NCBI GenBank assembly: GCA_024679065.1
Contig: JAGIQG010000017.1
Location: 57,846,001 to 57,910,000 of the forward strand
Length of the DNA stretch: 64,000 nucleotides
Direction of reading: 5' to 3'
From: Sphyrna mokarran
Taxonomy: Eukaryota
The notes under the pieces are model-generated. The model was not told where the DNA came from. It did not search any database and saw only the letters and a program-made list of their open reading frames with translations. Below, piece by piece: positions 3,421 through 60,029 of the stretch (position 1 is its first letter; every line of letters begins with the position of its first letter). A program made the translations under genes and the position numbers.

Positions 3421-4230
3421 AAAAGGTGAAGTTCCCTGAATTGTTTATCCCATTCCAGATCTGGACTGAATAATGTTATTGAAACTTGAAGCAGGTATTT
3501 GCTTCTTTCATATTCCAAGTAGCAACGCTAAAACTCTTGAGGATTTTTATTCCGTTTTGCACGCGGCCGTTACATTTTCGTGATCCGTGCGCATGGACCT
3601 TTTGTAATGTGTTGTATGTTCATCTCCATTTAGATGTTTTGGGATGTATTGTTTCATTTCTGCTTGGAGAAATTTCAGAACGTTCATTCTTAACACGTTT
3701 CAGCGCCGAAAAAAAAATCAAGAATGTTGATTTTGTTTGATGCCTGGCAGTTAATCCGTCCCTGTGCAAATTCCATACGGTATTGATTCAGGTCCGCTTG
3801 TTGTGCATTCTGATATTTCCCTTCCCCAAACGTTAGTGGACAGCTTTGTTCAGAATTTATTGAGATAAACCAGCAGTCGATTTAATTTAAGGGGGAATTG
3901 GGAAGAGTGTTCCAAAGGAAAAGCTAATAAGCTGAACATATGTCGTGGGGAGAATAAACACAGACATAGATTGAACTTGATGAAGGATCTTTAATTATAG
4001 AATTTCTTAATGCAGAGGAAGGACATTCAACCCGCTGAGTTTCACCGACGGATGATCCAACCTGGTTGGACCCCACGTTTTTACCGCGATATTTTCCCTG
4101 ATCCTTACATTAAAGGACACCTGAGGGGAACCAGATTCAGAACCAACCATGGCAGAATTTAATTAAGTAAATGTGAGTATTTTCATTTTGATAATAATTC
4201 TTTGTGTTTTTGTGATTTGTTGTTGTTCAG

Positions 4231-4545
4231 CCCACAGATTTCCAAAACTGGTATCCGGAGCTTTCCCGTGCTCCGGCAGACTCGAGATCCATAACCATGT
4301 AGATTCGGGCACAGTGTGTGACATTGACTGGAGTTGGAATGACGCCAGTGTGGTCTGTGCTGAGCTTCATTGTGGAATCGCCGTTTCCATGAGAAGAGGG
4401 GCTTATTTTGGAGAGGGCACTGGACTTATATGGAACGATAGATTTGAATGTAAAGGCAGCGAGACAAGCCTGATGGACTGCCCCGTTGTTCCTGCAAATC
4501 GGTCCGAGTGCACCCACAGCAACGATGTCGGTGTGATCTGTTCCG
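4231..4545 (+). CDS. SRCR domain exon 1 (8 Cys, group B)
   Basis: TTCAG| ... TCCG|GTGAG, 315 nt, phase 1-1; HRFPKLVSGAFPCSGRLEI...GTVCD...VVCAELHCG...FECKGSE...CTHSNDVGVICS. Confidence 0.92.
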
Positions 4546-5527
4546 GTGAGTGCAGATTTATGAATATTAGAAAAAAATGTCAGCAGGAAGGATGACAATT
4601 CTTTTTTTCTCTCCCCCATGAAGATAGCTAACCAGACCTTCATATTTCATGTCATTTGCTGCAATTTTGGCTTATCATTTCACAGTATGTACTTTTTTTT
4701 TTTGCAAATCAGAAATGTTATTCATGTTCTGAAATTAGCAGATTATTATTATTGATTTAGTACCGTGGCCAATTTTATGGGTTTCTCTTAAACATTTGAT
4801 ATGACACTTTTTGTGTTATGTATTCGTGGTCTACCTCCCAAGTCATGAACCCATTGCATGGACTATCGCAGACCATAACATTGCTTGCATTTTGAATAGG
4901 ATACTGGCGCAGCAGAATAAAGGAAGTTTCTTTTTATTTTCAAATATCTTGCAACAACAAAAAAGTTGGATGAGCTCAGTAACAGCATTGCACTGCTTGT
5001 TTTACATCCACTTACCTGCTTTCAGGTGGAAACATTTACTAATTGTAGAGGAGATTTCAAATCATGAAGAACGTTTCAATAATGGGCATAACCTCCAGAT
5101 ACTACAGGATTTTTTCGAACGACATTTTTTAAAATTTTATTTTCTGAATTAACCGGTCCCAACTCCTTCCAAATTGGAGGTGAACTCACCATTTTATGCT
5201 CAACATATTGCGCAGAGGATATCGTTTTATAATTGCACCCTAATGCAATGCTTAAACTTCATGCACATTATGCAAAATATATCTGCAAAGACACTATACC
5301 CTGTCAATGGTAGATTATATTTTCTGTTCAGGATGGACTGTTCGATTTGGGTTGAAGCATCTTCCTAAAAGCATCACATATTATGATAACTAGTTCAATG
5401 TGATCATTTATGAATATTGAAAAAAAATGATTGCGGATGTTTACCCGTTTATACAAACATAAACTGGCATGTGTTCTTCTAATTTCGATGTATAAATTAT
5501 GTGAGTCTGTGTTTGCCCTTGAAACAG

Positions 5528-5842
5528 GAAACCATGGGCCGAGATTGGTTGGTGGAAAGGACAGGTGCTCCGGACGGGTGGAAGTACTGCATGGAGAACA
5601 CTGGGGGACGCTCTGTGATGTTTACTTTGGTTTCGAAGACGCCAGTGTGATCTGTGAACATCTTCAGTGTGGAGTGGTAGAGAAAATCCCAAGAGGGGCA
5701 GCCTTTGGGAAGGGAAATGGGATAATGTGGAAGGAGAACTACGACTGTGGCGGGATCGAGTCCCAGTTGTGGGAGTGCCCGGTTTCATCCGTGGAAGAGT
5801 TTAACTGCTCACATGAAAATGACGCCAGTGTCATCTGCTCGG
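5528..5842 (+). CDS. SRCR domain exon 2 (8 Cys)
   Basis: AACAG| ... TCGG|GTGAG, 315 nt; PRLVGGKDRCSGRVEVLHGEHWGTLCD...CSHENDASVICS. Confidence 0.93.
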
Positions 5843-6146
5843 GTGAGTCCTTAAATCAAGAAAATGAAAACACGTGATGCTGGGATTGAAGAGGATATTT
5901 CCACATTTTACCGTCCAAATGTTAGGCCATCCTTGAGTTCCACACATATATATTATCACTCTGCCTTTCAATGTATATGCTTCAGATATGGAGCAGCCGC
6001 ACTGGTTGTTCAGCCTCCTGATTGTCTATGTACAGCAGCTTCTCATCACATCCTTCAGCCGTGCAGTTGCTGTGGTGAAAGGTAACATTAATATAAGTTA
6101 ATTTGCTGTACTGTAACCACCGATTTCAATGTCTTTCTTCGCCTAG

Positions 6147-6461
6147 GTGAAAACTGGTCATTGAGATTAAGGAATGGGGGAAGTCGGTGTGATGGGCGAG
6201 TGGAGATTTACTACAACCACAGCTGGGGCAGAGTGCAGGACAGCCTCTGGGATCTGAATGACGCTAATGTCACCTGTAGACAGCTGGGCTGCGGAGAAGC
6301 GTTAACCGCCTATAACAATTCAAAGTACGGAGAGGGTGAAGGGCCTGTGTGGGTGAATGATGTCCGGTGTGAAGGAAATGAATCGCATCTCCGGAAGTGC
6401 AGCACATTCTCATTGAACCCACATCGCAGTGGCAGCATCGGCGTGGGGGTTCTGTGCTCAG
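6147..6461 (+). CDS. SRCR domain exon 3 (6 Cys; lacks Cys2 and Cys7)
   Basis: CCTAG| ... TCAG|GTGAA, 315 nt; LRLRNGGSRCDGRVEIYYNHSWGRVQD...GVGVLCS. Confidence 0.92.
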
Positions 6462-6899
6462 GTGAATAAACAGGTCACTTTTCCAGAAATATAAAGAGAA
6501 AAATATAATCTTGGTCATCTTCCTTTTCGGGAACACATGCGTGAGATATTTGACAATCGTGCTTGGGTGCAGGAAAAGACGCTCCGGGAAGAAAAAAAAA
6601 CATAACAGTTTGGAATATGATGATACAAACAATTTAATAAAATCAGTCAACAACTTTATACATCTCCAGGTTAATCCCTTCAGTAAATTGAAACCAACAA
6701 AGACAGTATCAGCAATGGAGAATAATGTGTTGATCATGGGGTGGGTTTTAACCGCACAGCGAAGGGAAAGTCACACTTAAGCATAAGATAAAATCTTATG
6801 CCCCAGTCACTAACATAAGGACGATTGAATAAGTATGAAGAAAGGCTTGCTGCATGAAGTGTCAGATGGGAAGGGAAGCCAAACTCTTAGTTAAAGTTA

Positions 6900-7130
6900 A
6901 TTTATTAGTAACATGTCAGATTTACATTAACACTGCAATGAAGTTACAGTTAAATTCCCCTAGTCACCCAGGACGCCGCTTGCTTGGGTCAAGGCACGAC
7001 TTTCAGAATGTGAGAGGTACCCGGAGGAAACCTATGTAGGCATGGGGAGAATGTACACAATCCACACAGACGGAGACTCAAGCCAGGAATCTAACCCAAG
7101 TCCCTGGCATTATGAAGCAGCAGTGCTACA
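6900..7130 (-). mobile_element. tRNA-derived SINE (HE1/V-SINE-like)
   Basis: Reverse complement of the tRNA-like head (AGCACTGCTGC...GGGACTTGGGTTAGATTCC) and the GGTTTCCTCCGGGT core. Confidence 0.75.
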
Positions 7131-8002
7131 GTGTGGAATAGACTCAGGAGTGCTGATTATCATGATCGCTAGGGTAGTGACCAAACTGTGAGCAATGGTG
7201 GAGAGCATAGATATCCTTAAACATGACCACGATATTTTGAAACTAGTTTGCTTCGACAGGAGAGAATCCAATGCAGATCAAATAGCCAGGGCTGGTAATG
7301 CTGTTGATCAGAAAGGGGGAAAGGGAGAGGATTGGGGAGGGAGTAAGTGTGAGTGCGGCTCTGTGCTTGCGCTGGTGCTCCTGGTGAGTTGGAATTTTCG
7401 CGGTTCATTGAGAAAAGTGTTGATTGTATTCCCGTGTTTTGGAGGGGTGGCCATCAGGGTAGAATCGAAACATGTATTCTTGAGATAACAAGAAACTGAT
7501 GATCATTTGAGCAGCAACTTGTGTGAGTTCTCAGGAAAGGTCAATGTCTGAAAGATCGAGTCGCTGCCAGCCTACTTGCATATTTGCAGTATTTCTGTTT
7601 TGTGTGAACTGGTGAAGCATCTGATGAAGTTTTCATGGCAAAATGAGTCAGTGAAAAAAGAAAGAAACTAATGTCTGCTGGAAACATTCATTCTGGAACA
7701 AATAATTATATACTTTGGATAAAGCAAAACAAGTAGCAATGAGTGGGTCAGATCCAAACCAGAACGTTCGGATGATATTCTCATTGGAAATATGAATATT
7801 TAGAAGATTTGTAAAGGCGCCATCATTTATTTTACCTTTGAACAGAAACTTCTTTTTTTTTCTAGAGCGTAGATCAATGTCCCTGTCAACGGCAGTTAAA
7901 ACGAAGGTTTTAATTTAGCTGCAAATTATAAAATAGGCTGAATTTAGCAACGGGATGAATGTGTTTAAGAAAAATAATCTGTCACTTCCATTATTCTATT
8001 AG

Positions 8003-8317
8003 AGCACACTCAGTTAAGACTCTCTGGCGGTGGGAGCCGATGTGCGGGCCGATTGGAGATTTATCACAATGGGACCTGGGGCTCAGTTTGTGATGATTCC
8101 TGGGATCTGACAGACGCTGACGTGGTTTGCAAGCAGTTGGATTGTGGACATGCATTGCGATTTCCTCTCCATATATCGACTGGACCTGATTCACAGCCAA
8201 TTTGGTTGGATGAGCTGGAATGCTCCGGGAGTGAAACATTTCTGTGGGAATGCCCCCATGCATTGTGGGGTAAACACGACTGTAATCATAAAAAAGATGT
8301 GAAGATCATGTGCTCTG
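8003..8317 (+). CDS. SRCR domain exon 4 (8 Cys)
   Basis: ATTAG| ... TCTG|GTAAA, 315 nt; LRLSGGGSRCAGRLEIYHNGTWGSVCDDSWD...CNHKKDVKIMCS. Confidence 0.93.
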
Positions 8318-9049
8318 GTAAATGTCCCAACTTCAGTTACATTAGAAGTTTCATACAAAAGATATATTCCTGACATGTCAAACGACTGCATTTGCGGATG
8401 TTCTTCTGTCAAATCCCTGTCTGTGTTATTTATTCTGGACACCATTTCCGTTACAATATTTCTATATCCTACTTTTGATGTGTTGTTTTATGTTTCTTTA
8501 TCCCTCATTTCTTGACATAAGCGCATCTTCCAGTTAATATCCCTGACTATTATGATCACGAGCCTTTAAATTCATCAGCTTATGTGTAAAATATTCCAGA
8601 AAACGACATCATTTTGCAAAGATATTTGATTTAATGATTATTTCTCAAGAAGCATGCTGCCACTTTATTCCTCGCATCAAAATTCACTCCATTCCACTTA
8701 GCAGTACGAAAACTAAGTTGTCATTGCCATCTGTATCCTGCTATATATTAACATTTTGATACATACTTTCCATTGCTCTTTGTTATTAACTATATAAACC
8801 AGTTTGCTGTTACAACAGAGGTTTTTTTTTATTTTACTGCCGATTGCAAAGTCCAGCTGCTTTTTGTAACTCCCAAGGAGCAGCGACCGCAGCACCAAAT
8901 TATGAACCTCACACCGGAAGATTTGCTACTTTAGAAACGAGAAACTTCACAGACTTTTTAAAATCTGCTTTTACACCGACTGCCTGGTTTCCCATTGTCT
9001 TTCGTAGACTTTCATTATGGAACTTGTGGAAGGTCTGCTATAAATTCGC

Positions 9050-9272
9050 GAAAGACTCTGACAACACCACATTTAATTTCAACCAATTTATTCGATAGTA
9101 TCATCACAAGCTTTCGAGGTTTGTCCTTTGTCAGGTGACGAAGGGGCACCTGACGAAGGGGCAAACCCCGAAAGCTTGTGAGTTTATAATCACATAAATT
9201 AATTGGACTTAAACCTGGTGATGGCAGGCTTCTTACTGTGCTTACCCCAGTCCAACGCCGACATCTCCACAA
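9050..9272. mobile_element. Penelope-like element remnant, head-to-head inverted pair with hammerhead-like core
   Basis: CTGACGA-A-GGGG-CAAA-CCCC-GAAAGCTT (9150-9177) followed by ...CCCCAGTCCAACGCCGACATCTCCACA; 9055-9137 is an inverted, diverged copy. Confidence 0.65.
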
Positions 9273-9526
9273 CGTTAATCTGCGCACAGAGCATCTATAG
9301 CATTGCTCCTTTCACCATTGCTGCAAGTTTTGCAAATAAATCAATCGGGTTCTTCGTTCAAATGTTTTGATTAAAATTTACTGTTGCTTATTCTTGATTT
9401 TCTCTGCTTATCTGTGACGTTTACAAAATAATTATGAGAAATTTGCGAACTCAAGTTAGAAACATATAGTGCATGAATACAGAACTGATGATTACACCAC
9501 GTGGTTATTTATGATTCGCTTGACAG

Positions 9527-9844
9527 AGCACAAAGAGCTACGTTTGGTGCAGGGAAAGCATCGTTGTGAGGGCAGAGTGGAAGTGTTCTATAACGGGATC
9601 TGGGGAACAGTTTGCTCTGAAAAGCTCGAGCAAGATGATGGAGCAGTGATCTGTAAACAGTTAGGTTGTGGCCCACTCGTTTCCATTGACTATGACGCTC
9701 GTTCATTCGGAGAAGGATCCGGACCTATTTGGTTGGATGAGGTCGAGTGCCTTTCACACGAGTCGACGCTTTGGCAGTGCCAGGCAGACCCGTGGGGTCA
9801 ACACAACTGTGAGCATCGGGAAGATGCAGGTGTCGTTTGTTCAG
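9527..9844 (+). CDS. SRCR domain exon 5 (8 Cys)
   Basis: GACAG| ... TCAG|GTAAC, 318 nt; LRLVQGKHRCEGRVEVFYNGIWGTVC...CEHREDAGVVCS. Confidence 0.93.
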
Positions 9845-9929
9845 GTAACACCATCAATCATTCTGCTTACAGGTGTGATTTAAAATATTGATGCAGCTCA
9901 TGGAGTCAGCATGTTTGTCTTATCGACAG

Positions 9930-9986
9930 GGGGAGACAAACCGAAGCAAGAGCAGGACGCTGTGAACGGCTGCAAGCGAAAATCAG
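9930..9986 (+). CDS. Short inter-domain linker exon of SRCR gene
   Basis: GACAG| ... TCAG|GTATT, 57 nt, phase 1-1, GGDKPKQEQDAVNGCKRKS. Confidence 0.7.
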
Positions 9987-10079
9987 GTATTTTCCAAACC
10001 TTAATAAAACAGCTATCTGATTGTATTTCTCTCTTGTCCTATATCAAAATTCATAATTTATTTGTTATCTTTGAAAAAA

Positions 10080-10374
10080 TTCTGCCAAAGTTTACACCTG
10101 CCTGGAGATAATAACAGCTGTTCCGTGAGAGTGGAGATATTGTGTAATGGAACCTGGGGCATGGCGTGTGATGATTCCAGGGTTTTGAACGATTCCAGTG
10201 CTGTCTGCAGACAGCTGGGCTGTGGCTCTGCTCTCGACACCACTGGAGGGCGCTCTTTTGGGCAGAGTAACGATATGATCTGGATGGATGTGGTGAAGCG
10301 CAACGGAAGAGAAGCATTTCTGTTTGACTTTCCTTCTTCGTCATTAACTCAAACCGACTATGATCACAAGGAAG
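10080..10374 (+). pseudogene. Decayed SRCR domain exon 6
   Basis: SLHLPGDNNSCSVRVEI...WGMACDD...VCRQLGCG; Cys5/6/7 replaced (VKRNG, FDFPS, TDYDHKE); no AG at the expected acceptor; cut before the final Cys by a SINE at ~10375. Confidence 0.85.
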
Positions 10375-10630
10375 GTAGAATCATAGAATCCTTCGGCCCA
10401 TTGAATGTGCACCGAACATAAGCCCACCAATCCCTACCTCCATATCCCTACATACTTTACCACTAATTCCTCAAACCTACGCATCCCTGGACACGAAGGC
10501 ACAATTTCTTAGGATGGCCAATCAACCTAACATGCACATCTTTGGACTGTGGGAGGAAACCGGAGTACCCCGAAGAAACCGAAGCAGACATGTGGAGATA
10601 TACATTTAGGCAGTGACCAAGCCGTGAATC
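10375..10630 (-). mobile_element. tRNA-derived SINE (HE1/V-SINE-like) interrupting SRCR exon 6
   Basis: CACATCTTTGGACTGTGGGAGGAAACCGGAGTACCC core; CR1-like tail at the left end. Confidence 0.75.
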
Positions 10631-23369: not shown

Positions 23370-24480
23370 GAGGCAGAGAGAGGACATTTACCGGTGAAGA
23401 GGGGTTGTCGTAGATTGCTGGGAGGATTAGAGAGGACATTAGGAAGAAGATTTTCACTCAGAGAGTAGTTGGTGACTGGAATTTGTTGCGTCACCTGGTG
23501 GTTCAGACAGAAACTCCTCGGATCACTCGATCGGCCTCCAGATCTGCAGCTGAAATGTTGGAACCTGTAAAGATGGGGCTCATGACGGGTCACTAGAAGG
23601 TGAGATTAGAATGGAATGCGAGTTTATAGATCCCGAGCTGATACAGATGTGATGGGTTGAATGGCCTCCTTCTCTGCCATAACGTTTTCTCTGCTTTCAA
23701 ATAGCCCCATCGCGAAGCAAGGTGGAAGAATGAGATGTTTTTAAATAAGAAATAAGAGGAAAGATGAGGATATTGAGGCAACGCTGAGTTATTCTGACAC
23801 CCATTCCCCCTTCAATAATCAAAGTGAGTGAGAAATCATCCCACCCGCCACATGTTCAACCCAAATGCATTTACCCTAGTGGCAGTACAGTGGCACAGTG
23901 TTTAACGCTGCTGCCTCACAACACCAGGGACCCAAGTTCGATTCTAGCCTCAGGTCACTGTCTGTGCTGAGATTGCACATTCTCCCCTTGTCTATGTGCA
24001 TTTCTTCTGGGTGCTCCGGTTTCCTCCCACATTCCAAGATGTGTGAGTTAGGGGGATGAGAAGGTAAATATGTGAAGATAGGGGAGTTGCGTAACATGTC
24101 CTTTTGATGCAGAGTCAGGATTTTATGGTTTTAAGTCGGGGTAGTTTGATTCCTGGGGTCAAGTTGCTGCGGTGACAATTCACTCTCTGTCTTTAAACAC
24201 TCTGCAATGCTAAGACTGGGGAGAGGAGTGTGCAGCAGGGAGCAGCATTGTAGCTTCTCTCCCCCCATTGAAACTGGGATTTTTGCTCCATCTGCTGCAC
24301 CATCCCCACCACATCCAATGGGGAGCAATATGGACAATGGGCTACAGGCAGACCCATCGCTGACGGCCATCTTATATTGCTCAAACAACCAGCCGGCGGC
24401 CATCTTGCGTTGCCAGAGAAGACGGCTCCCGCCATCTTGCGTTGCCAGGGGAGACATCAGGCGGCCATCTTGAGTTGCCT
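23370..24480 (+). repeat. Copy 1 of an old ~1.1 kb duplication (old CR1 end, unique spacer, SINE, conserved core, GCCATCTT array)
   Basis: Colinear similarity to 38990-40075, e.g. TTTTCTCTGCTTTC...AATAAGAAATAAGAGGAAA...CCAAATGCATTT and the near-identical core 24192-24345. Confidence 0.8.
23878..24060 (+). mobile_element. tRNA-derived SINE (HE1/V-SINE-like)
   Basis: GTGGCACAGTGTTTAACGCTGCTGCCTCAC...GTTCGATTC (A/B boxes) plus GGGTGCTCCGGTTTCCTCCCAC. Confidence 0.85.
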
Positions 24481-24861
24481 GAATTTTGCTCTTCTATGTC
24501 ATGCTCTTCCTGCCTTTTGATTTGCACGCTTACTGTTAGCAACAGATCCAACACTTCAGATTCCATTTGCGTAAAGATGGCAAGATCTAGGCGTCTCCAC
24601 TCTTCTTCAGTTATGGCATTAATAATTTTGAAAAAGTGAATTGGAAAGTTATTTGAGGAAAACATTTCACAGGCTCATAACTAATAAAAACATGGATAAA
24701 TAAACGAAAAAAATACAGAGAAAGACAGGCAGGAACTTGCACACGAACGTACACAAGTGCATTCCGTGCACACAATCAGACACGTATAATTAAACACAGA
24801 GTGACTTACACAAAGAGATAGAGGCACATAAAGATCACCGCCACTCTTTAGGCCGATCATT

Positions 24862-28424: not shown

Positions 28425-28470
28425 ATGTTCACCATTTCTTGGTTTTCCGTATTCGTGTTGTCCAATGTCT
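28425..28470 (+). pseudogene. Leader (L1) exon of antigen-receptor V segment
   Basis: 46 nt, MFTISWFSVFVLSNV+T|GTATGT; phase 1 joins the V exon as ...NVYVDS, a typical L1/L2 split. Confidence 0.8.
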
Positions 28471-28756
28471 GTATGTACTAGATAGCAGAAACACCTGTTT
28501 TTTTTTTAATCGACACTTGCTGAATATAATGACGACATTTTGTGTTTGTTGACAGATTCTAGTGAACGCAATACAAATAATTCACTGGTCTTTAATCCGC
28601 TAAATTGTCATCATGCTGGCTCAATGCGTCCCAGCCATTGCAATTTTTCTTCTTTCAGAACTACCCCCCCCCCCCACCGGAATCTGCCTTGGAACAAGTT
28701 AGGAGTTTGGCAAATTAATTGTTTAAATGTTGACTAATTGACTTACTTGGATGAGC

Positions 28757-29040
28757 AATAGAATGCTACAGTGCAGAATGAGGCCACTCAACCCATGGAG
28801 TCTGCACTAACTTACTCAGACCCGCAGAACCCCACTGACCCTAAGTGACAATTGGACACGGCCAATCCGCCCAACCCACACATCATTGGAGTGTGGGAGG
28901 AGACGGGAGCACCCGGAGGAAACCCACGCAGATACGGGGAGAACGTGCAAGCTCCACACACAGACATTGTCCCACTCGGGAATCAGATGAGGGTAATTGG
29001 TGCTGTGTGGCAGCAACGCTAACCATTGTGTCGCCACAGA
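28757..29040 (-). mobile_element. tRNA-derived SINE in the V leader intron
   Basis: GGAGCACCCGGAGGAAACCCACGCAGATACGGGGAGAACGTGCAAGCTCCACAC core. Confidence 0.85.
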
Positions 29041-29167
29041 ATGTAGCAATGTTACTGCAGAAAACCAATCTATTTATTGATCTTTCCCTCTCTTTACTTT
29101 GTCCCATGTTCAGTTGATCATTTTGTCTCCTGACTGAACTGCTGCCCTGTTTTAATTATCTTATTAA

Positions 29168-29465
29168 ATGTTGACTCCAAGCACTTAGTCGCCCAGTTTC
29201 CATCGACAATGACTCTGTCTCCACGGGAGGAAACCGCTTTCTACTTGCAGCATCTGGCAGGGGAACGTGACCGATTATTGGTTGCACTAGTACATCCAGA
29301 GCAGTGACCAAATTGAGTGGGTTAGACCCGGGGTACTGTCTTCATCTAGGGGCAGAAAACGAATGGATGTCAAGCACGGCCCTCAGAACAACGAGTTCAC
29401 CCTGTTCGTGAAGGACTCCCAGATCGAAGACAGCGGCACATATTACTGTGTGTCCTACAACGATG
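29168..29465 (+). pseudogene. Antigen-receptor V exon (pseudogene), inverted relative to TRBC
   Basis: VDS-KHLVAQFPSTMTLSPREETAF/(frameshift ~29240)/TCSIWQGNVTDYWLH*YIQSSDQIEWV...RMDVKHGPQNNEFTLFVKDSQIEDSGTYYCVSYND; conserved Trp is TAG (29288-29290); acceptor reads AA (29166-29167). Confidence 0.9.
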
Positions 29466-29504
29466 CACAGCGTTACAAGAATGCAAAGTCTTCCAACTAA
29501 AACT
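29466..29504 (+). promoter_or_regulatory. 23-bp-spacer recombination signal sequence
   Basis: CACAGCG (29466-29472) + exactly 23 nt + ACTAAAACT (29496-29504), directly after the YYC end of the V exon. Confidence 0.92.
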
Positions 29505-36642: not shown

Positions 36643-36776
36643 NNNNNNNNNNNNNNNNNNNNNNNNNNNNNNNNNNNNNNNNNNNNNNNNNNNNNNNNNN
36701 NNNNNNNNNNNNNNNNNNNNNNNNNNNNNNNNNNNNNNNNNNNNNNNNNNNNNNNNNNNNNNNNNNNNNNNNNNNN
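36643..36776. other. Assembly gap (134 N)
   Basis: Run of N next to a degenerate (TG)n tract. Confidence 0.99.
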
Positions 36777-38989: not shown

Positions 38990-40075
38990 AGACAGGATGG
39001 ACAGGGAAGTCCCTCTTCCCCCGAACAGAGACAGGGGTTCACACAAATTGAAGGTGATTGGGAGGAGGATTACCAGGGACATGTGTAAGAAGCTTGTCAC
39101 TCAGAAGGTGGAGGATATCTGCAAAGCACTGCCTAAACTGATGGTTCAGTACTCGGTGCCCGGATTTTTAGCTGAAACACTCTAACCTGTAAAAATTAGA
39201 TTAGCGACTGGGTTTGCTGGAAGATGGGATTAAAATGGACAGCTAGTCTTTATTTCCAAAGCTGGTACAGATGTGATGGGCTGAATGGCCTCTCCTGCAC
39301 TGTAACCTTTTCTCTGCTTTCTGTTAGCCCTGTTGATGGGTGGGATGGAGGAGCTGGTTTTCAATAAGAAACAAGAGGAAAAATGGAAGATTTTTTTGAG
39401 ACAAAGCTGATTTTTCCTGATGTTACCCTCACCCCAATCAAATTGAGATAGTGATACCACCACCTTCCCCATGTTCCCCCAAATACATTTGCCCCAGTGT
39501 CAGCATGGTGGGACAGTGATTAACACTGCAGCCACACTGTGCTAGGCACCTGTGGGTCATTTGCACATTTTCCCCATTTCGGTGTGGGTTTCCTTCGGTT
39601 TCATCCCCCAGTCTGAAAGATGTGCTGGGTTAGGGTGCATTGGACCGTGCTTCAATTCTCCCTCAGTGTTACCCAAACAGAAATATGGAGACTAGGGGAA
39701 TTCTGACAGTAACTTCATCGCAATGTTAATGTCAGCCGACTTATTAGAAACACTAATAAATAAACTTAAATTGCAGACCAAGGTGATGCAGTGACAATGC
39801 ATCCTCTTGTTTAAACACTCTGCAATGCTGAGACTGGGGGAGAGGAGTGAATAACAGGGAGCAGCATTGCAGCTTCTCTCCCCCCATTGAAACTGGGTTT
39901 GTTGCTCCATCTGCTGCACCATCCCCACCACATCCACTCGGGGGGCAATCTGGACAATGGGCAGCAGCCAGGCCTCACTGCGCCTGCGCCACAATCACAC
40001 CCTCCGCCAGCGGCAGCCATCTTGCGTTGTCAGGGGAGACGGCCAGCGGCCATCTTGCGTTGCCAGGGGAGACGG
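38990..40075 (+). repeat. Copy 2 of the old ~1.1 kb duplication (includes SINE 39500-39770)
   Basis: Colinear with 23370-24480. Confidence 0.8.
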
Positions 40076-40179
40076 CGTCCCGCGGGCTCTATTCTGGAGG
40101 AATTCCCCTCCTGCAAATGCGCCCAGAGAGTTAAATTGTAATCTCTCAATATTTTGAATCTTGATGATTATTATTCACA

Positions 40180-40600
40180 TCCTCACCCGTCAGACTTCGG
40201 GCTCCTTTTCGATTCGGGAACATCTTTTTTTAATTCCAAATATTTTTCAATCAGATCCGCGTGGTGTGCTCTGGGAAAATACTACACACATGCGCGGTTC
40301 CGCCTCTTTGTAAAAATATGTATTTTATTTAATTTTAATTCCGCTCTGGGCGGGATTTCTGGGTGGGAATTTCTCTCACTTTCTACATTTCTAAACCGTC
40401 GCTTCTTCCTCGACGGGGGTGGGTGGGGGGGGAGGGGCTGAGTGACGTCACTGCAATATGGCGGCTGGACCCGCCTCTGTTCAGGCCCCTGATGTTCCGC
40501 CAACGAGCAGCGGCCGGGCCGGAGCGGGCAACAGGTGACATTGGGCGGTGCAGCGGCCGATCAAGTTGTAGCGCCCCCTGTTGGTCAGGAAGAGGGCTAG
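40180..40600. promoter_or_regulatory. CpG-rich promoter-like island (CRE, GC boxes, YY1-like start)
   Basis: Palindrome AGTGACGTCACT (40441-40452), AATATGGCGGC (ATG at 40458), GGGCGG boxes and unusually dense CpG. Confidence 0.65.
40568..40587 (-). promoter_or_regulatory. CTCF-binding motif
   Basis: Minus strand TGACCAACAGGGGGCGCTAC, a close match to the CCASYAGRKGGCGC core. Confidence 0.7.
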
Positions 40601-41179
40601 CAGCAGCACAGTCTCTGCCCAAAGACTTCCCCAGTTCAGCTGCTCAGAGACACTGGAAACCTCTTCAACTGGAAACTCCAGCTCCTCACATTCAGCCCCA
40701 GTGTGTTCACTCATTGTTTTATAGACAACCTTTGTAATGAAATCAGAAACAACTTGTTCACATTAAAGGGGGTGGGAATCTGGACCATTCTGCTCAAAAG
40801 GCTCCACTTGCCTTGACATTTCAATTGAAATGTTCAAGATGAGATTTTCTAGATGCAAGTCATGTTGCAATGTGGAACGCTTATGATTCCACAATAAGAT
40901 CAACGCAGATATCTCACAGGGTTGTGTGACTGCAGGAAATATCAGAGATGCGCTTTCATAAGAGAAAGGGAATAACCAACACGCTACAGCAGAGCTGCGG
41001 GATCAACGGAACTAAAGAGACTTGCATAGAATTGTAAACAGTGCGATCATGCTGCAGTTCTGGAACAGTTTTTCAGAAATAGAATTTGATCAGTGCTCAC
41101 AAACTGGTTCAGAATATATTGAACTGCTGCTGTCTCAGTCTCTGTGGCGCATTCGGCTGTTAACATTTCATCTGGCTCA

Positions 41180-50399: not shown

Positions 50400-50690
50400 T
50401 CCTCACATTCCTGTGTAGAGATGGAGCAGGTGCAGCGGCTCAGAAACAGTTTGTACCTCGGAGGAAATGAGAGAGCAGCATCTCAGTGAGGCAGTCTGCA
50501 AAATGACAGCTCCCTGGGGACAGCTGGCGCATTCCGTTAAACCACAGTGTGAAACCTGGGCCCATAACCCACTTTAGAAACTGTGAGATGCGCCTGCCAG
50601 CTCAAAGCTCCACCGCATTCTTTGCAAGCTCAGGTCCCACGGTTTCCGGTATACTATTTTTTTTCTCTCTGTGCAGCTGCTCAATGTCTT
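50400..50690. promoter_or_regulatory. Candidate TCR-beta 3' enhancer
   Basis: E-boxes (50427, 50521, 50674), ETS cores (50406, 50461, 50530, 50643), RUNX AACCACA (50540) and ACCGCA (50612), TCF-like CTCAAAG (50601) in ~290 bp, about 4 kb 3' of TRBC. Confidence 0.5.
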
Positions 50691-54468: not shown

Positions 54469-54495
54469 TCAGTCAAACCTTTTGCTATAAAACAT
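54469..54495 (-). CDS. TRBC: TRBC exon 4 (cytoplasmic tail)
   Basis: TTTTACTAG|ATG TTT TAT AGC AAA AGG TTT GAC TGA = MFYSKRFD*. Confidence 0.88.
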   Translation of the reverse strand: MFYSKRFD

Positions 54496-57400
54496 CTAGT
54501 AAAACAAACAAACAAACAAAAACAGTCAGCCTTACCACAATTTTAAATCAGAATCGTACAGCCCAAAAGGGGGCCAATCTGAAAATTCATTGGCATTTCA
54601 AAAGGAGTTGACAATTCATACCAATTGCCTGCTGTCTGGTCCCGCTCCCCACAAGTGTAAACGTAACAACATTTTTAAAAGTTAGTATTGAATGTATTTC
54701 TACCTGTTTCTGGCAGTGCTTTCCAGATAGTGACAACTCTCTGCATGAAAGTATTTCCACATCTTTCCCATCTTCCCCCTTTCCTTACTTGATCCATTAT
54801 TTTATATCGGCGTCCTTTTATTCCTGACTACATTTTTTCTTTTCCTTACTTACACATGGGTCTCAGCCACTTGCACTTATGTTACATTCAACACTTTCTG
54901 CACTTCTAACATCATTCTTTCCCACTCCTGTCAGAGTCATGATAGAATTCTGCTTTATCCCTGGCACGGCACTCAAAGGGTTTTCTCCACCCAACTTCAA
55001 CAGAATACCACCCACCAAACACATTACCTTCTAACTTCCCTGTTAGCATTCGTGATCCTTTCTCTCCTTAATCCACAAGGATGATCCAAACGCGATTGTT
55101 CGCTATTTCAATTCACACCTTCTTCTCATGCTCAGATTTCTGCCCCTGTTGCAATGTTCCAACAGCTCAAGTTGGAAAAAATCATCTTCTAATTCGCAAC
55201 ACAACACTGAATTTAACAACCTTGGGTCATAATCTAAGTCCTCCATTTTGCACTGCTGTCAGCCTGAATGTTTAACTGATATTTTGCTTTTAAGTCAAAT
55301 AGTCACAGTGGGATGAACTGTATTCAATTCGTGGATAATCGGAGCGAGGAAGTGTTTTTTTATTGAGTTCCATACAAGAAAGATCAGAAACTCCAGGTGC
55401 TTTAATATAGAAAGTCAATGGCTCATCAAACGTATTTTAACCACAGAACTAGTTAGAATTGCCACCGCATGGAGCGAGTGAATCGAATAGCATAAATAAT
55501 TTAATGGCAGAAGACAGATATGCAAATAGACGGTCAGGGAATCAGAGGGTCACTGTGAAGAGGTTAGTTATAGTGGGATGGGACAACTGTGGTGTTTAAA
55601 CAGAGGTATGCACCTTAGGATCCATGAATCTATTTGAGTCGATGAGGTAATTCATATGCTCTTATTTTCCACATTTTTTTCATGAAAGCATACATGAGTT
55701 TCTCCACCAAGGCCATGCAAAATGCAACAGTTGGGATGAAAGATGGGTTGGACTTTTCTTTCCCGCTGAAGAAAATCTATAGGCTGTCATTAAATGTATG
55801 CGGGAGTACCAGCGATTGCAGGAAAACCATAACTGTTCATGGCTTGACTACAAAAAAAAAGTTTAAGTTTTAGGCTGTATATTTTGCCATACTTAGTTTA
55901 ATCTTACCTTAGTTTTCCAACCAAGTACTGAGATGAACACGCCATAAAAGATGCTTTTGCAGATAAGGATCAGGTATGTTAACTTTCCTGTTTGTCTGCT
56001 TTGCATTTTAGCCTCTGTGAAGTAAATATAAAGAACAATTTGGAATTTCTATTCTCTTCTACTGTTTGGAAATAGAACATATCTTCATTTCAGGATCCCA
56101 GTGTACGAGTTGAGCTGTAGAAATACAATATTTCACATTTATGCGTGGAGTTGATTGAGGTCCACTTCATTATATTAAGTCCACTTTTACAATATTGTAT
56201 GTTCAATTAGCAGAACTTCTATTTGTTGTACCACTATCCCCCAAAAATGAAGCAATATATGAATTGGTAACTAAAAAGTGCATGGATCGGGAGTTTGTGC
56301 AACCAGTAAGGAGCTTTCCCCTTCTGAATAGTAATTATGCAATCAATCCCTACTCCAGATCCCTATAAGTGGTGTTGGACAATCATTCTTTCATATGAGA
56401 TGTTAAACTAATAATATGCCTGCCCCTTCCAGAGAATGTAAGTTATCCAGTACAGTGTTTTCCACTGTTCTCTGGGCCTCAACTTATTCCTTAACCAATG
56501 TCACAAAAAGAAGATGATTTCGTCATATATTTCTTGCCATTTGGGGTGAAACCAGTTTCTGTGATCATCAAAATATTGCTGTGACTAAACCTTCAATGGA
56601 TTTCATTGACTACTATGAACTTTGAGATGTTATGTGACCCTAAAACACTTTACTTTTTAAAGGGTATAATTGTGTCTGCGTCTTCTGTGCCAAAATTGAA
56701 CTATAATCTCACAGAACGAAGTTTTGTGACACTACTGTTCCTTTAATAAGTGCATATTCATGATGTTTCTCTGCAATTCTTTTAGGAGCATCTGCCATTT
56801 TGTGTTGTTTGCTGACCTGTCTCAGTCTATGTATTTTGATTGTTGATGGAATTATATAGTAGGCTGTTTGTTTAGTTTCAATTTGGCTTAATGCACCGTC
56901 CTGGAGTTTGAATTATCAGGGCAAGAATGATTCACAGGTCAGGTCAAACAGTTCTGTTTCTTACAAGAGAACTTCATTTTCTCTTCGGCTAGCTTGTAGC
57001 TGCGAGGACTGAATATTCCGAGAAATACCTGCTGTTTGTAATTTTTATAAATGATCTGGATGAGGGTATTGAGGGATGGATCAGTAAATTTGCAGATGAC
57101 ACTAAAGTTGGTGGAGAGGTAGATAGTGAAGAGGGGTGTTATAGTTTACAGAGTGACTTGGACAAGTTGTAGAGCTGGGCCGAGAGGTGGCAAATGGAGT
57201 TTAATGTGGAAAAGTGTGAGGTAATGCACTATGGCAGAAACAATAAATGTGTAGAGTATAGGGCAAATGGTAGGACTCTTAATAGTCTAGATGAACAGAA
57301 GGATCTTGGTGTATATGTCAATAGATCCCTGAAAGTAGGCAGTCAAGTCGATAAAGTTGTTAAGAAGGCATATGGAGTCTTAGCTTTTATTGGTAGAGGG

Positions 57401-60029
57401 ATTGAATTTAGGAGCCGCAACATCATGTTGCAACTGTACAAAACTCTAGTGCGGCCGCACTTGGAGTATTGTGTGCAGTTCTGGTCGCCACATTATAAGA
57501 AAGATGTGGAGGCATTGGAGAGGGTACAGAGGAGGTTTACCAGGATGTTGCCTGGTATGGAGGCAGGTCCTATGAAGAGAGGTTGAAGGATTTGAGGTTG
57601 TTTTCGTTAGAAAGGAGGCGGCTAAGAGGGGATCTTATTGAAGCATATAGGATGATTAGAGGTTGAGATAGGGTGGACAGTGATAGCCTTTTTCCTAGGA
57701 TGGAGAAAGCTAGCACGATGGGACACAGCTTTAAATTAAGGGGTATGAGTTATAGGACGGATATCAGAGGTAGGTTCTTTACTCAAAGAGTGATTAGGGA
57801 GTGGAATGCCCTGCCTGCAGCTGTTGTAGATGCGCCAAGTTTGGTGGCGTTTAAGAGGTTTATTGATAAGTATATGGAAGAGAAGGGAATGGTTTAGTTT
57901 GGAGGGGCATTGCTTTTTATTTTGGTCGGCACAACATCGAAGGCCGAAGGGCCTGTTCTGTGCTGTAATGTTCTATGTTGTATGTTCTAAATATTTCAGT
58001 GTCTCTCTCTCTCTGGTATTGGAAGTTTAGCTCTTGGAAGCTGATTGCAAAGGATGCAAACGTGATTCAAGAATTTTTTTTCAAGAAGCAAGTGCTTCAG
58101 ATTTGGGATGTATTGCCTGGAAGTGCGTCGAAGGCAAATTCATTCGAAACATTGAAAAGGAATTTGTGTCATTATTTTGATATACATCTTGTGCAGAGGT
58201 TCAGAAAAGGGCTGGGGAATGACACTAAGTCATGATACTTATTTGGACAGCCAATGCAGACACAATGGATCGAATGGCCTCCATCTGTGACCTAACGATT
58301 CTGTGAGCTGTGATGATATGGTGCCTTTAAGAAAAAATGTTTATCTCATGCTTCTTGTCAGAGGTTGTTTGCATTTCAGATCTGTTTTGCAGGGTGCTGA
58401 TTTGTTTATGACAAGATTAAATTTCTAGCTGGGAGAACAAGATAAATATTCATTTTAGACATAGAGTGCTTATTTAAGAAGCACTAGTGTATTTCTGTAT
58501 AATTATGTTCCCATGGGTTTTCACAGAAGAGTTTAGATTAGATTGATTTGTAGGGATATATTTTTTCACCGTCTGAAGGAAACTCCCATTCCTCCCAATA
58601 TGTGGTGCCCAGATGCAGCTCGGAGAATATGGTGACTTACCTTTACTTAAACCACAGATTTCTGAAAAAAAGAGGAAAATATATGTGTTTAGCTTCTGAT
58701 ACTTTAAGGGATTTCTGTGTTATCACAGTTGTAAGCTGTTTTCAATCTGTTACCTTGCGACAGTCACTAAAATATAAGTTTTGACATTGTTCACGGGTAC
58801 ATTTGATCTGTGTGATTGTTTATTTATCTATTTATTGATCTACAGATTCGTGTATTGATCAATGAGTAGAGCACAGGAGCCATGCAAGATACAGCTTTCT
58901 TCAAAGCTAAAGTGGAATGGCAGAAATAATAAATGTGTAGAGTATAGGGCAAATGGTAGGATTCTTAGTAGTCTAGATGAACAGAGGGATCTTGGTGTGT
59001 ATGTGCATAGATCCCTGAAAGTAGGCAGTCAGGTCGAGAAGGTTGTTAGGAAGGCATATGGAGTCTTAGCTTTTATTGGTAGAGGGATTGAATTTCGGAG
59101 CCGCAACGTCACGTTGCAACTGTACAAAACTCTAGTGCGGCCGCACTTGGAGTATTGGGTGCAGTTCTGGTCCCCACATTATAAGAAAGATGTGGAGGCA
59201 TTGGAGAGGGTACAGAGGAGGTTTACCAGGATGTTGCCTGGTATGGAGGGCAGGTCTTATGAAGAGAGGCTGAGGGATTTGAGGTTGTTTCGTTAGAAAG
59301 GAGGAGGCTAAGAGGGGACCTTATCGAAACATATAAGATGATTAGAGGTTTAGATAGGGTGGACAGTGATAGCCTTTTTCCTAGGATGGGAAAAGCTAGC
59401 ACGAGGGGACACAGCTTTAAATTAAGGGGTGATAGTTATAGGACGGATATCAGAGGTAGGTTCTTTACCCAAAGGTGGTTCGGGAGTGGAATGCCCTGCC
59501 TGCGGCAGTTGTAGATGCGCCAAGTTTGGTGGCGTTTAAGAGGTTAGTTGATAAGTTAATGGAAGAGAAGGGAATGGTTTAGTTTGGAGGGGCATTGCTT
59601 TTTATATTGGTCGGCGCAACATCGAAGGCCGAAGGGCCTGTTCTGTGCTGTAATGTTCTATGTTCTATGGTATAGTAGGCCTACCAGCGTTGATGTAAAT
59701 CATGCCCATGTGGATGTATGGTGTTGATCCTTTAGCATAGTGCTTCACTTCACACTTGACCACTTTCGATTTGACCCAGTCTTTAGTCGTGAATCGAAGG
59801 CGACTGCTGATACTGAAGGACTTGTTCCCATCTACTGAGACTGAACTGAGATCGGTCTGAATGCTTGAGTCACTGGCCTTCCTTTCCTCACCATCGACAA
59901 ACCAGCTGATCTGGATATTGTCAGGGTAGAAGTCAGATACAAGACAAACCACTGTCGCGTTCTCCTTCTCTTTTATCTCTTCGGGAGAGGGTTCAAAGAT
60001 CGTAACTGTGGCATTCTTAATCTCATGTT
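54469..60029 (-). CDS. TRBC: T-cell receptor beta constant region gene, four exons, intact
   Basis: Exons 60029-59685, 58661-58641, 56014-55908 and 54495-54469 all have AG/GT, splice in frame (phases 1,1,1,0) and give C1-set Ig domain, Cys connecting peptide, Lys-containing TM and short tail. Confidence 0.93.
55908..56014 (-). CDS. TRBC: TRBC exon 3 (transmembrane)
   Basis: TCACAG| (E)[35 protein letters not shown] |GTAAGA; conserved TY...K...Y TCR-beta TM pattern. Confidence 0.93.
57028..57988 (+). mobile_element. CR1 subfamily A in TRBC intron 2
   Basis: From [11 protein letters not shown] to the tail. Confidence 0.93.
58641..58661 (-). CDS. TRBC: TRBC exon 2 (connecting peptide, interchain Cys)
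   Basis: TTTTTCAG|AA ATC TGT GGT TTA AGT AAA G|GTAAGT = (E)ICGLSK(E), 21 nt. Confidence 0.9.
58918..59668 (+). mobile_element. CR1 subfamily A in TRBC intron 1
   Basis: ORF2 C-terminus and tail ending about 15 nt from the exon 1 donor. Confidence 0.93.
59685..60029 (-). CDS. TRBC: TRBC exon 1 (Ig C1-set domain)
   Basis: CACACAG| (E)[42 protein letters not shown]...[10 protein letters not shown]....VKCEVKHY...INA |GTAGGC; the FEPSxxEI, FYPD and SSRLR motifs are diagnostic of C-beta. Confidence 0.96.

Follow-up and report, generated by a model that had tools for sequence, protein, structure and literature searches.

V-beta segments that lie 3' of the constant gene in the opposite orientation have been reported in mammals, birds, reptiles and amphibians (PMC11754216, PMC5278385, PMC12698447). 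In the bamboo shark, 30 of the 35 TRB V segments listed in Supplementary Table 3 of PMC10322711 lie 3' of the nearer C-beta and opposite to it, so that an inverted position is ordinary for a shark, and 13 of the first 15 TRBV are marked there as transcribed. V segments of immunoglobulin (Ig) type are established in sharks on TCR-delta (PMC12227049, PMC6795676), and the shark TRA/D-IgH complex mixes V types (PMC12227049). The same study gives as its authors' opinion that a VH on TCR-beta would be disadvantageous, and models the beta and delta loci as having arisen by duplication, an inverted V following C in both. Its table S1 places within the white shark TRA/D-IgH complex a V labelled TCRbV (LOC121270145), the mirror image of the atypical V in TRB described below. 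Among bony fish, salmonid TRBV6, with a CDR1 of 9 and a CDR2 of 3, is expressed (PMC10464911, PMC8559430). The literature covered contained no description of a V of Ig type on TCR-beta, most subscription papers on shark TCR lying outside its scope, and the available text of PMC3964593, PMC7349638, PMC13433984 and PMC12529555 held nothing further on shark TRB; a published shark V-beta family of the type described here may exist.

We analyzed 64,000 nt of the hammerhead Sphyrna mokarran (GCA_024679065.1, contig JAGIQG010000017.1, positions 57,846,001-57,910,000, forward strand), hereafter the window. The V segment at 29168..29465 (+ strand) is genuine, but it is a pseudogene. It has the organization of a rearranging V: a split leader, a V-set exon with the Cys/Trp/Cys pattern (the Trp codon having become TAG) and a recombination signal sequence (RSS) directly 3'. 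The leader exon (L-part1, 28425..28470, +) is 46 nt long and hydrophobic, keeps an intact phase-1 GT donor, and ranked first among 3 hydrophobic candidates ending in GT in a scan of 26.5-29.2 kb; it would join the V exon in frame. A second leader candidate at 28614 was rejected because it has no GT donor. The leader-V intron contains a dispersed repeat (28838..29030, unstranded), presumably SINE-like, with six further copies in the window at 71-96% identity. The V retains its leader, intron and RSS and is therefore not a retrocopy.

Three lesions disable the segment. The splice acceptor at 29166..29167 reads AA instead of AG; one extra base in FR1, which lies within 29239..29242 and cannot be placed more exactly, shifts the exon between frames 2 and 0; and TAG at 29288..29290 replaces the conserved Trp. 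In alignment, the one-base step in FR1 restores the FR1 length seen in the paddlefish (P0024) and bowfin (P0117) V domains. Cys1 is encoded at 29246-48, with the TAG 13 codons further on, and Cys2 at 29447-49, 52 codons past the Trp position; FR2 ends in IEWV and the V in YYCVSYND. Thus, the motifs on which the initial annotation was built are all present at this place on the + strand, including the 13-residue Cys-Trp spacing. With its AA acceptor, frameshift and TAG, however, this V can yield no receptor chain, chimeric or other, in this genome.

The RSS (29466..29504, +) has a 23-nt spacer, one mismatch in the heptamer, whose CAC is intact, and two in the nonamer, i.e., three overall. It begins at position 20, after a germline tail of 19 nt counted from the first base of Cys2. 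Matches of this quality to a 23-RSS occurred twice in the window, as against 0.3 per window expected from 30 simulated sequences. Read through with X, the exon scored 26.3 bits against Pfam V-set (cut-off 26). A profile of 47 V domains found it (32.3 bits, iE 2.5e-9) and no other V in a six-frame scan of the window, and tblastn with our V panel gave E values down to 2e-8 at the V exon and no lower than 8e-4 in the rest of the window.

The gene on the - strand of the window is TRBC, with 63% identity to a Scyliorhinus TCR-beta-like protein and 55% to a Heterodontus TCR. It is intact, and its four exons splice in frame: exon 1 (59685..60029) encodes the C1-set domain, identified by Pfam and protein matches; exon 2 (58641..58661), placed by AG/GT ends and frame, a connecting peptide with a Cys; exon 3 (55908..56014), matching Heterodontus and Scyliorhinus TRBC, a transmembrane segment with a single Lys; and exon 4 (54469..54495) the cytoplasmic tail and stop, the end of the tail resembling that of Heterodontus TRBC. 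A J motif was absent from the 4 kb upstream of TRBC, which puts D and J beyond the window. The V lies 3' of TRBC on the opposite strand, at a distance of 30.6 kb (measured to the start of C exon 1). Between them is an assembly gap of 134 N (36643..36776, unstranded) adjoining a GT-rich simple repeat, so that adjacency and relative orientation depend on the scaffold join. Given that one gap, the V is a pseudogenised TRB segment that lies 3' of an intact C-beta and faces the other way. None of the 8 shark TRBC proteins that we found carries this V. Heterodontus gene models P0132-P0137 place near-identical TRBC on contigs of at least four different lengths, which suggests that the horn shark has several TRB units.

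Beyond the V is a multi-SRCR gene on the + strand, which we take to be CD163/DMBT1-like, with at least six SRCR exons within 4227-10421 (at about 4.3, 5.6, 6.2, 8.0, 9.6 and 10.2 kb), two of them confirmed by Pfam. This neighbour differs from the trypsin and ephrin-receptor genes that flank tetrapod TRB (PMC12529555). On this flank of C-beta (10500-55900) there is a single V, as against a cluster of 15 at the bamboo shark counterpart; it seems that shark TRB layout differs among lineages, or that the window holds a separate, smaller TRB unit.

Between C and V, the kilobase 40001-41000 is richer in GC (0.50) and CpG (o/e 0.71) than its surroundings and contains the window's sole perfect TGACGTCA, at 40443; it is a possible regulatory element. 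Two related GC-rich stretches, 24150-24490 and 39830-40140, each carry a CAAGATGGC-type motif (at 24430 and 40015), which we take to be a YY1 motif, and are probably copies of one repeat. RSS-like matches at 3766 (minus) and 50543 (plus) were set aside, as no V, D or J was found adjoining them. At 50513-50570 (+), 3' of C, a perfect heptamer with a 12-nt spacer and a nonamer with three mismatches follows a GGGACAG stretch resembling D-beta; no 5' RSS was seen beside it, and the element is likely a product of chance.

By position and RSS, the segment behaves as a 3'-inverted V-beta, and it has no working function in this genome. Like mammalian TRBV30/31, duck V-beta4 and the inverted V-beta of tuatara, skink and bamboo shark, it lies 3' of TRBC on the opposite strand with a 23-RSS, and, as for these, rearrangement by inversion would be expected of it; unlike them, it is a pseudogene. 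Skink VB8, taken to be the skink's inverted V-beta, was rejected as a match because its geometry differs (Cys-Trp 11, as against 13 here). Judging from orientation and the 12/23 rule, the ancestral intact V would have rearranged by inversion, its 23-spacer RSS pairing with the 12-spacer RSS of D-beta. The present V, with its near-consensus RSS, may still be cut by RAG, and the outcome would be unproductive.

The family of the V was assessed against a panel of V domains, 98 collected by pattern and 5 added, of which 101 were scored and 47 of the 103 were used in trees so as to balance the classes. The class labels are our own, and the TRDV2-like and short-CDR2 V-beta rows were enriched by our own profile search. 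The panel's shark V-beta are of two types, with 3 tree rows; its 3 IgH-type rows come from animals other than sharks; and shark IgH, TAILV, IgL and TRA/D V, as well as any TRG, TRDV3 or TRBV30-type V, fell outside it. We consider the best explanation overall, with a slightly better than even chance of being right, to be an atypical pseudogene of the TRB locus that derives from an ancient lineage of TCR V close to the TRDV2-like/short-CDR2 group. The principal alternative, which we regard as unlikely, is an antibody-derived V that was copied into TRB with a 23-RSS and then decayed; jointly at that same level of doubt, it would be either light-chain-like or of IgH/TAILV type, in the latter case shortened by about six codons near CDR2.

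The V has Cys-Trp and Trp-Cys spacings of 13 and 52. The corresponding values are 13/54 in TRDV2-like V (3 of 3), 11-14/49-55 in short-CDR2 V-beta (n = 21), 8-13/52 in kappa-like V (n = 9), 12-13/58-60 in IgH-type V (n = 3: 58, 60, 60) and 11-12/55-61 in conventional V-beta (n = 48). Both spacings thus set the V apart from the 48 conventional domains, and its Trp-Cys of 52 sets it apart from the long-CDR2 form of IgH, TAILV and VH-delta; an IgH origin would require the further loss of about six codons, and the shorter spacing may reflect a later deletion. A light-chain-like origin also fits this value, 52 being found in all nine kappa-like rows. The Cys-Trp of 13 and very short CDR2 are those of TRDV2-like V. 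The CDR1 end S-Y-T-M-x-W and the RSS near position 13 (inferred from read-through) of TRBV6-like fish V are lacking, the RSS here being at position 20. The V has neither conventional V-beta nor IgH geometry, and fits neither the TRDV2-like nor the TRBV6-like family cleanly.

As the initial annotation had noted, 13 residues is unusual for ordinary V-beta (11-12 in the conventional domains here). The spacing does not by itself point to IgH: it is 13-14 in 14 of the 21 domains of short-CDR2 fish V-beta and 13 in nurse shark aV1 (read by eye in the source table of PMC5931798), and a value common to several TCR and IgL families is not diagnostic. The columns of IgH type that do occur, YWxHW, in which His precedes Trp, and the EW of FR2, speak for an antibody origin, as does nurse shark aV9.1m, an IgH-like V on TCR-alpha that, read by eye, likewise combines Cys-Trp 13 with NNxFTL (PMC5931798). 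The Trp-Cys of aV9.1m is 58, however, and the hammerhead germline tail of 19 nt compares with about 11 in one IgH row (inferred from the read-through of P0125); the long tail and the Trp-Cys of 52 argue against IgH. FR3 N-x-F-x-L was dropped as evidence against IgH because aV9.1m has it too. Set beside the IgH-type V known on TCR-delta or TCR-alpha (TAILV, VH-delta, IgHV trans-rearrangements, NAR-TCR), the hammerhead V shares Cys-Trp 13, the 23-RSS, the His-Trp and EW columns and a weak pull to the IgH stem in trees; unlike them, it is 6-8 residues shorter from Trp to Cys, has the longer germline tail and adjoins C-beta, and it is known here from the gene alone.

A search of the V read-through against 1.84 billion representatives returned 127 matches. 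On per-domain rescoring, the TRDV2-like V of paddlefish (39.4 bits) and bowfin (35.3) came first, a fish short-CDR2 V-beta third (35.2) and the next match at 24.5; the protein that we recognized as IgH-type scored 20.0, and no IgH domain was among the top per-domain matches, which speaks against an antibody origin. The TRDV2-like label rests on the alignment of the bowfin V to human TRDV2 in the PDB. The closest matches, TRDV2-like V and short-CDR2 fish V-beta, have about 31% identity to the V. Global scores over the 101 domains ran the same way: 119, 111 and 92 for TRDV2-like V and 98 for a sturgeon short V-beta, as against 77.5 for the best IgH and 62 for the best of 50 conventional V-beta. 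These scores are low against all families, whose within-family means are 133-253; the mean against TRDV2-like rows (107, as against 253 within that class) is near between-class levels.

The V resembles the TRDV2-like TRA/D V of human (TRDV2), bowfin (P0117), paddlefish (P0024) and wheatear (P0154) in Cys-Trp 13, short CDR2, FR1 and FR3 (31% identity). It differs from them in lying in TRB rather than TRA/D, in lacking the IYRE-x-D motif of CDR2, in scoring far under family level and in forming no supported clade with them. With the short-CDR2 V-beta of ray-finned fish, whose top-scoring members have 24-35% identity to it, it shares the TRB locus, a long CDR1 and a very short CDR2. These fish V-beta, which we equate with salmonid TRBV6 solely on the lengths of their CDRs, occur beside conventional V-beta, and 5 of the 21 domains are in one gene model with TRBC (predictions).

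No intact orthologue, which the initial annotation had proposed to look for, was found in the protein sets. A word-indexed search of the read-through among proteins of 53-172 aa gave no candidate; among longer proteins, a profile search yielded 76 matches, of which none was named as coming from a cartilaginous fish and none exceeded 33% identity across the greater part of the query; and the representative search held no full-domain match above about 34%. These negatives are weak, since germline V segments are often missing from protein sets. For nurse shark TRA, the opening rows under nine family labels, a few of the 447 in all, showed no close relative when read by eye (PMC5931798). In PDB sequence searches multi-domain scFv and light chains predominated, with light chains first, a point against the preferred reading. 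The fold model of the V (pLDDT 80) had 5 Foldseek matches at E <=0.001, all generic V-set domains, and VIA Z scores of 9.9-11.3 that tie light chain, VH, TCR, CD8 and PD-1; the V-delta structure 1tvd ties with antibody domains (Z 10.4). Fold comparison is thus uninformative as to family.

In the tree of 47 domains, the V sits on a branch of length 1.25 outside conventional V-beta (92/96). Grouping it with conventional V-beta, whose rows include only 3 from sharks (Scyliorhinus and Heterodontus), gave an AU p of 0.042 and a placement weight of about 0, moderate support for the V not descending from that group. Its sister relation to IgH V had support of 49/11. Of 1000 bootstrap trees, 481 (48%) made it sister to the 3 IgH rows, 189 (19%) to the kappa-like rows, 229 attached it to the branch that links Ig with the TRDV2/short group, and 47 with TRDV2-like rows alone or both families. 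Placement on 92 branches, with 5000 resamples, fewer than advised, gave the IgH stem the top weight (0.28), the Ig stems 0.69 altogether, the TRDV2/short-V-beta side 0.19 and positions above both 0.12; 0.06 fell in or on TRDV2-like V, 0.12 on its common stem with short V-beta and 0.015 on short V-beta alone. Holding the V with the TRDV2-like rows gave a lnL 0.17 above that of the free tree (AU 0.54); AU was likewise 0.54 for TRDV2-like plus short V-beta, 0.23 for short V-beta and 0.41 for IgL, which has no shark row.

The trees thus lean, without support, to the Ig side, and the IgH-stem weight, the bootstrap counts and the AU for IgL all favor an antibody origin. Against it stand the 49/11 support, the length of the V branch and the leading placements, which are all stems and none within a family; long-branch attraction could affect them. 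The mixing of V types in the shark TRA/D-IgH complex speaks for this origin, and the argued disadvantage of VH on TCR-beta, an opinion, against it (PMC12227049). If it is correct, intact orthologues could yield Ig-V/TCR-beta chains.

The description of the segment as Ig-heavy/V-delta-like rather than V-beta-like is thus borne out in part. It is outside conventional V-beta, no clustering within shark TRBV families was seen (a borderline result with 3 shark rows), and its best matches are TRDV2-like. As for the IgH half of the description, the IgH geometry is lacking (Trp-Cys 52, as against 58-60 in 3 of 3 IgH-type rows), and the trees, a kind of check that the initial annotation had suggested, are compatible with IgH ancestry (sister at 49/11). 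The proposed chimeric TCR-beta system was not substantiated, the V having three lesions and neither an intact orthologue nor a transcript having been found.

The preferred reading of an old TCR V lineage rests in part on a relation among the reference families. Without the V, TRDV2-like and short-CDR2 V-beta form one clade (98/98). Together with the 5 of 21 domains modelled with TRBC, this gives delta-related V on beta a precedent. We judge the chances about even that the hammerhead V is a long-diverged relative of this long-CDR1/short-CDR2 TCR V lineage; coming from a TCR lineage, it would be an old TRB resident and not a captured antibody V. As an observation in itself, the short-CDR2 V-beta family of ray-finned fish clusters with TRDV2-like TRA/D V and apart from other V-beta (12 rows, one model), a grouping for which we found no statement in the literature.

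Less probable than capture of an antibody V is that the segment is a decayed member of a catalogued divergent shark V-beta family, for instance an orthologue of bamboo shark TRBV09, its oddity being exaggerated by decay. TRBV09 (ccg_chipu00000117:5339706-5340422) is oriented in the same way, with a leader exon of 46 nt and an RSS at position 20, found in only 1 of the 35 bamboo shark V; it lies 41 kb from TRBC_1, as against 30.6 kb here, and is marked as an ORF without evidence of transcription (PMC10322711). The nurse shark, moreover, has six V-beta families (PMC5931798), as against the two shark types in our panel. However, TRBV09, known from table values only, seems to have an exon 2 about 15 nt longer (293 vs 279 nt, or 278 once the extra base is discounted), provided that End in the table, on which the legend is silent, is the base before Cys2, and the trees weakly reject a place among conventional V-beta (AU 0.042, weight about 0). 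TRBV09 is a lead for an orthologue and no more, and if it is itself atypical, this explanation and the preferred one overlap.

It is improbable that the V is an orphan from TRG, TRA/D or IgL, or a product of the assembly join, that never served a beta chain. In favor of this are its being the sole V in the window, with an SRCR gene beyond it where the bamboo shark has its 15-V cluster and an assembly gap before C, and the position of its RSS (20), which is closer to the values for zebrafish TRG (22-34) and for a minor class of TRA (20) than to the TRB mode of 16; the panel contained no TRG V. Against it, its orientation, spacer and distance match the 3'-inverted V-beta of shark, bichir and sturgeon (PMC10322711) and of tetrapods.

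As found, the V is a dead gene that changes no function; it is useful as a marker. We hold it very doubtful that the V is a remnant of an Ig-derived lineage, IgH/TAILV-like or light-chain-like, within chondrichthyan TRB whose intact orthologues in other sharks, with TRBV09 as first candidate, would give an antibody-type V on TCR-beta. If such a lineage were real, the mixing of Ig and TCR would be widened from delta to beta by way of inversion to D-beta/J-beta, and if intact orthologues proved to be Ig-derived and expressed with C-beta, this would contradict the view that VH is kept off the MHC-restricted beta chain (PMC12227049). The presence in shark TRB of a V that is neither conventional beta nor clearly Ig suggests that the atypical short-CDR2 V lineage of fish TRB may predate the split between sharks and bony fish, and it bears on the model that derives the beta and delta loci from a duplication (PMC12227049).
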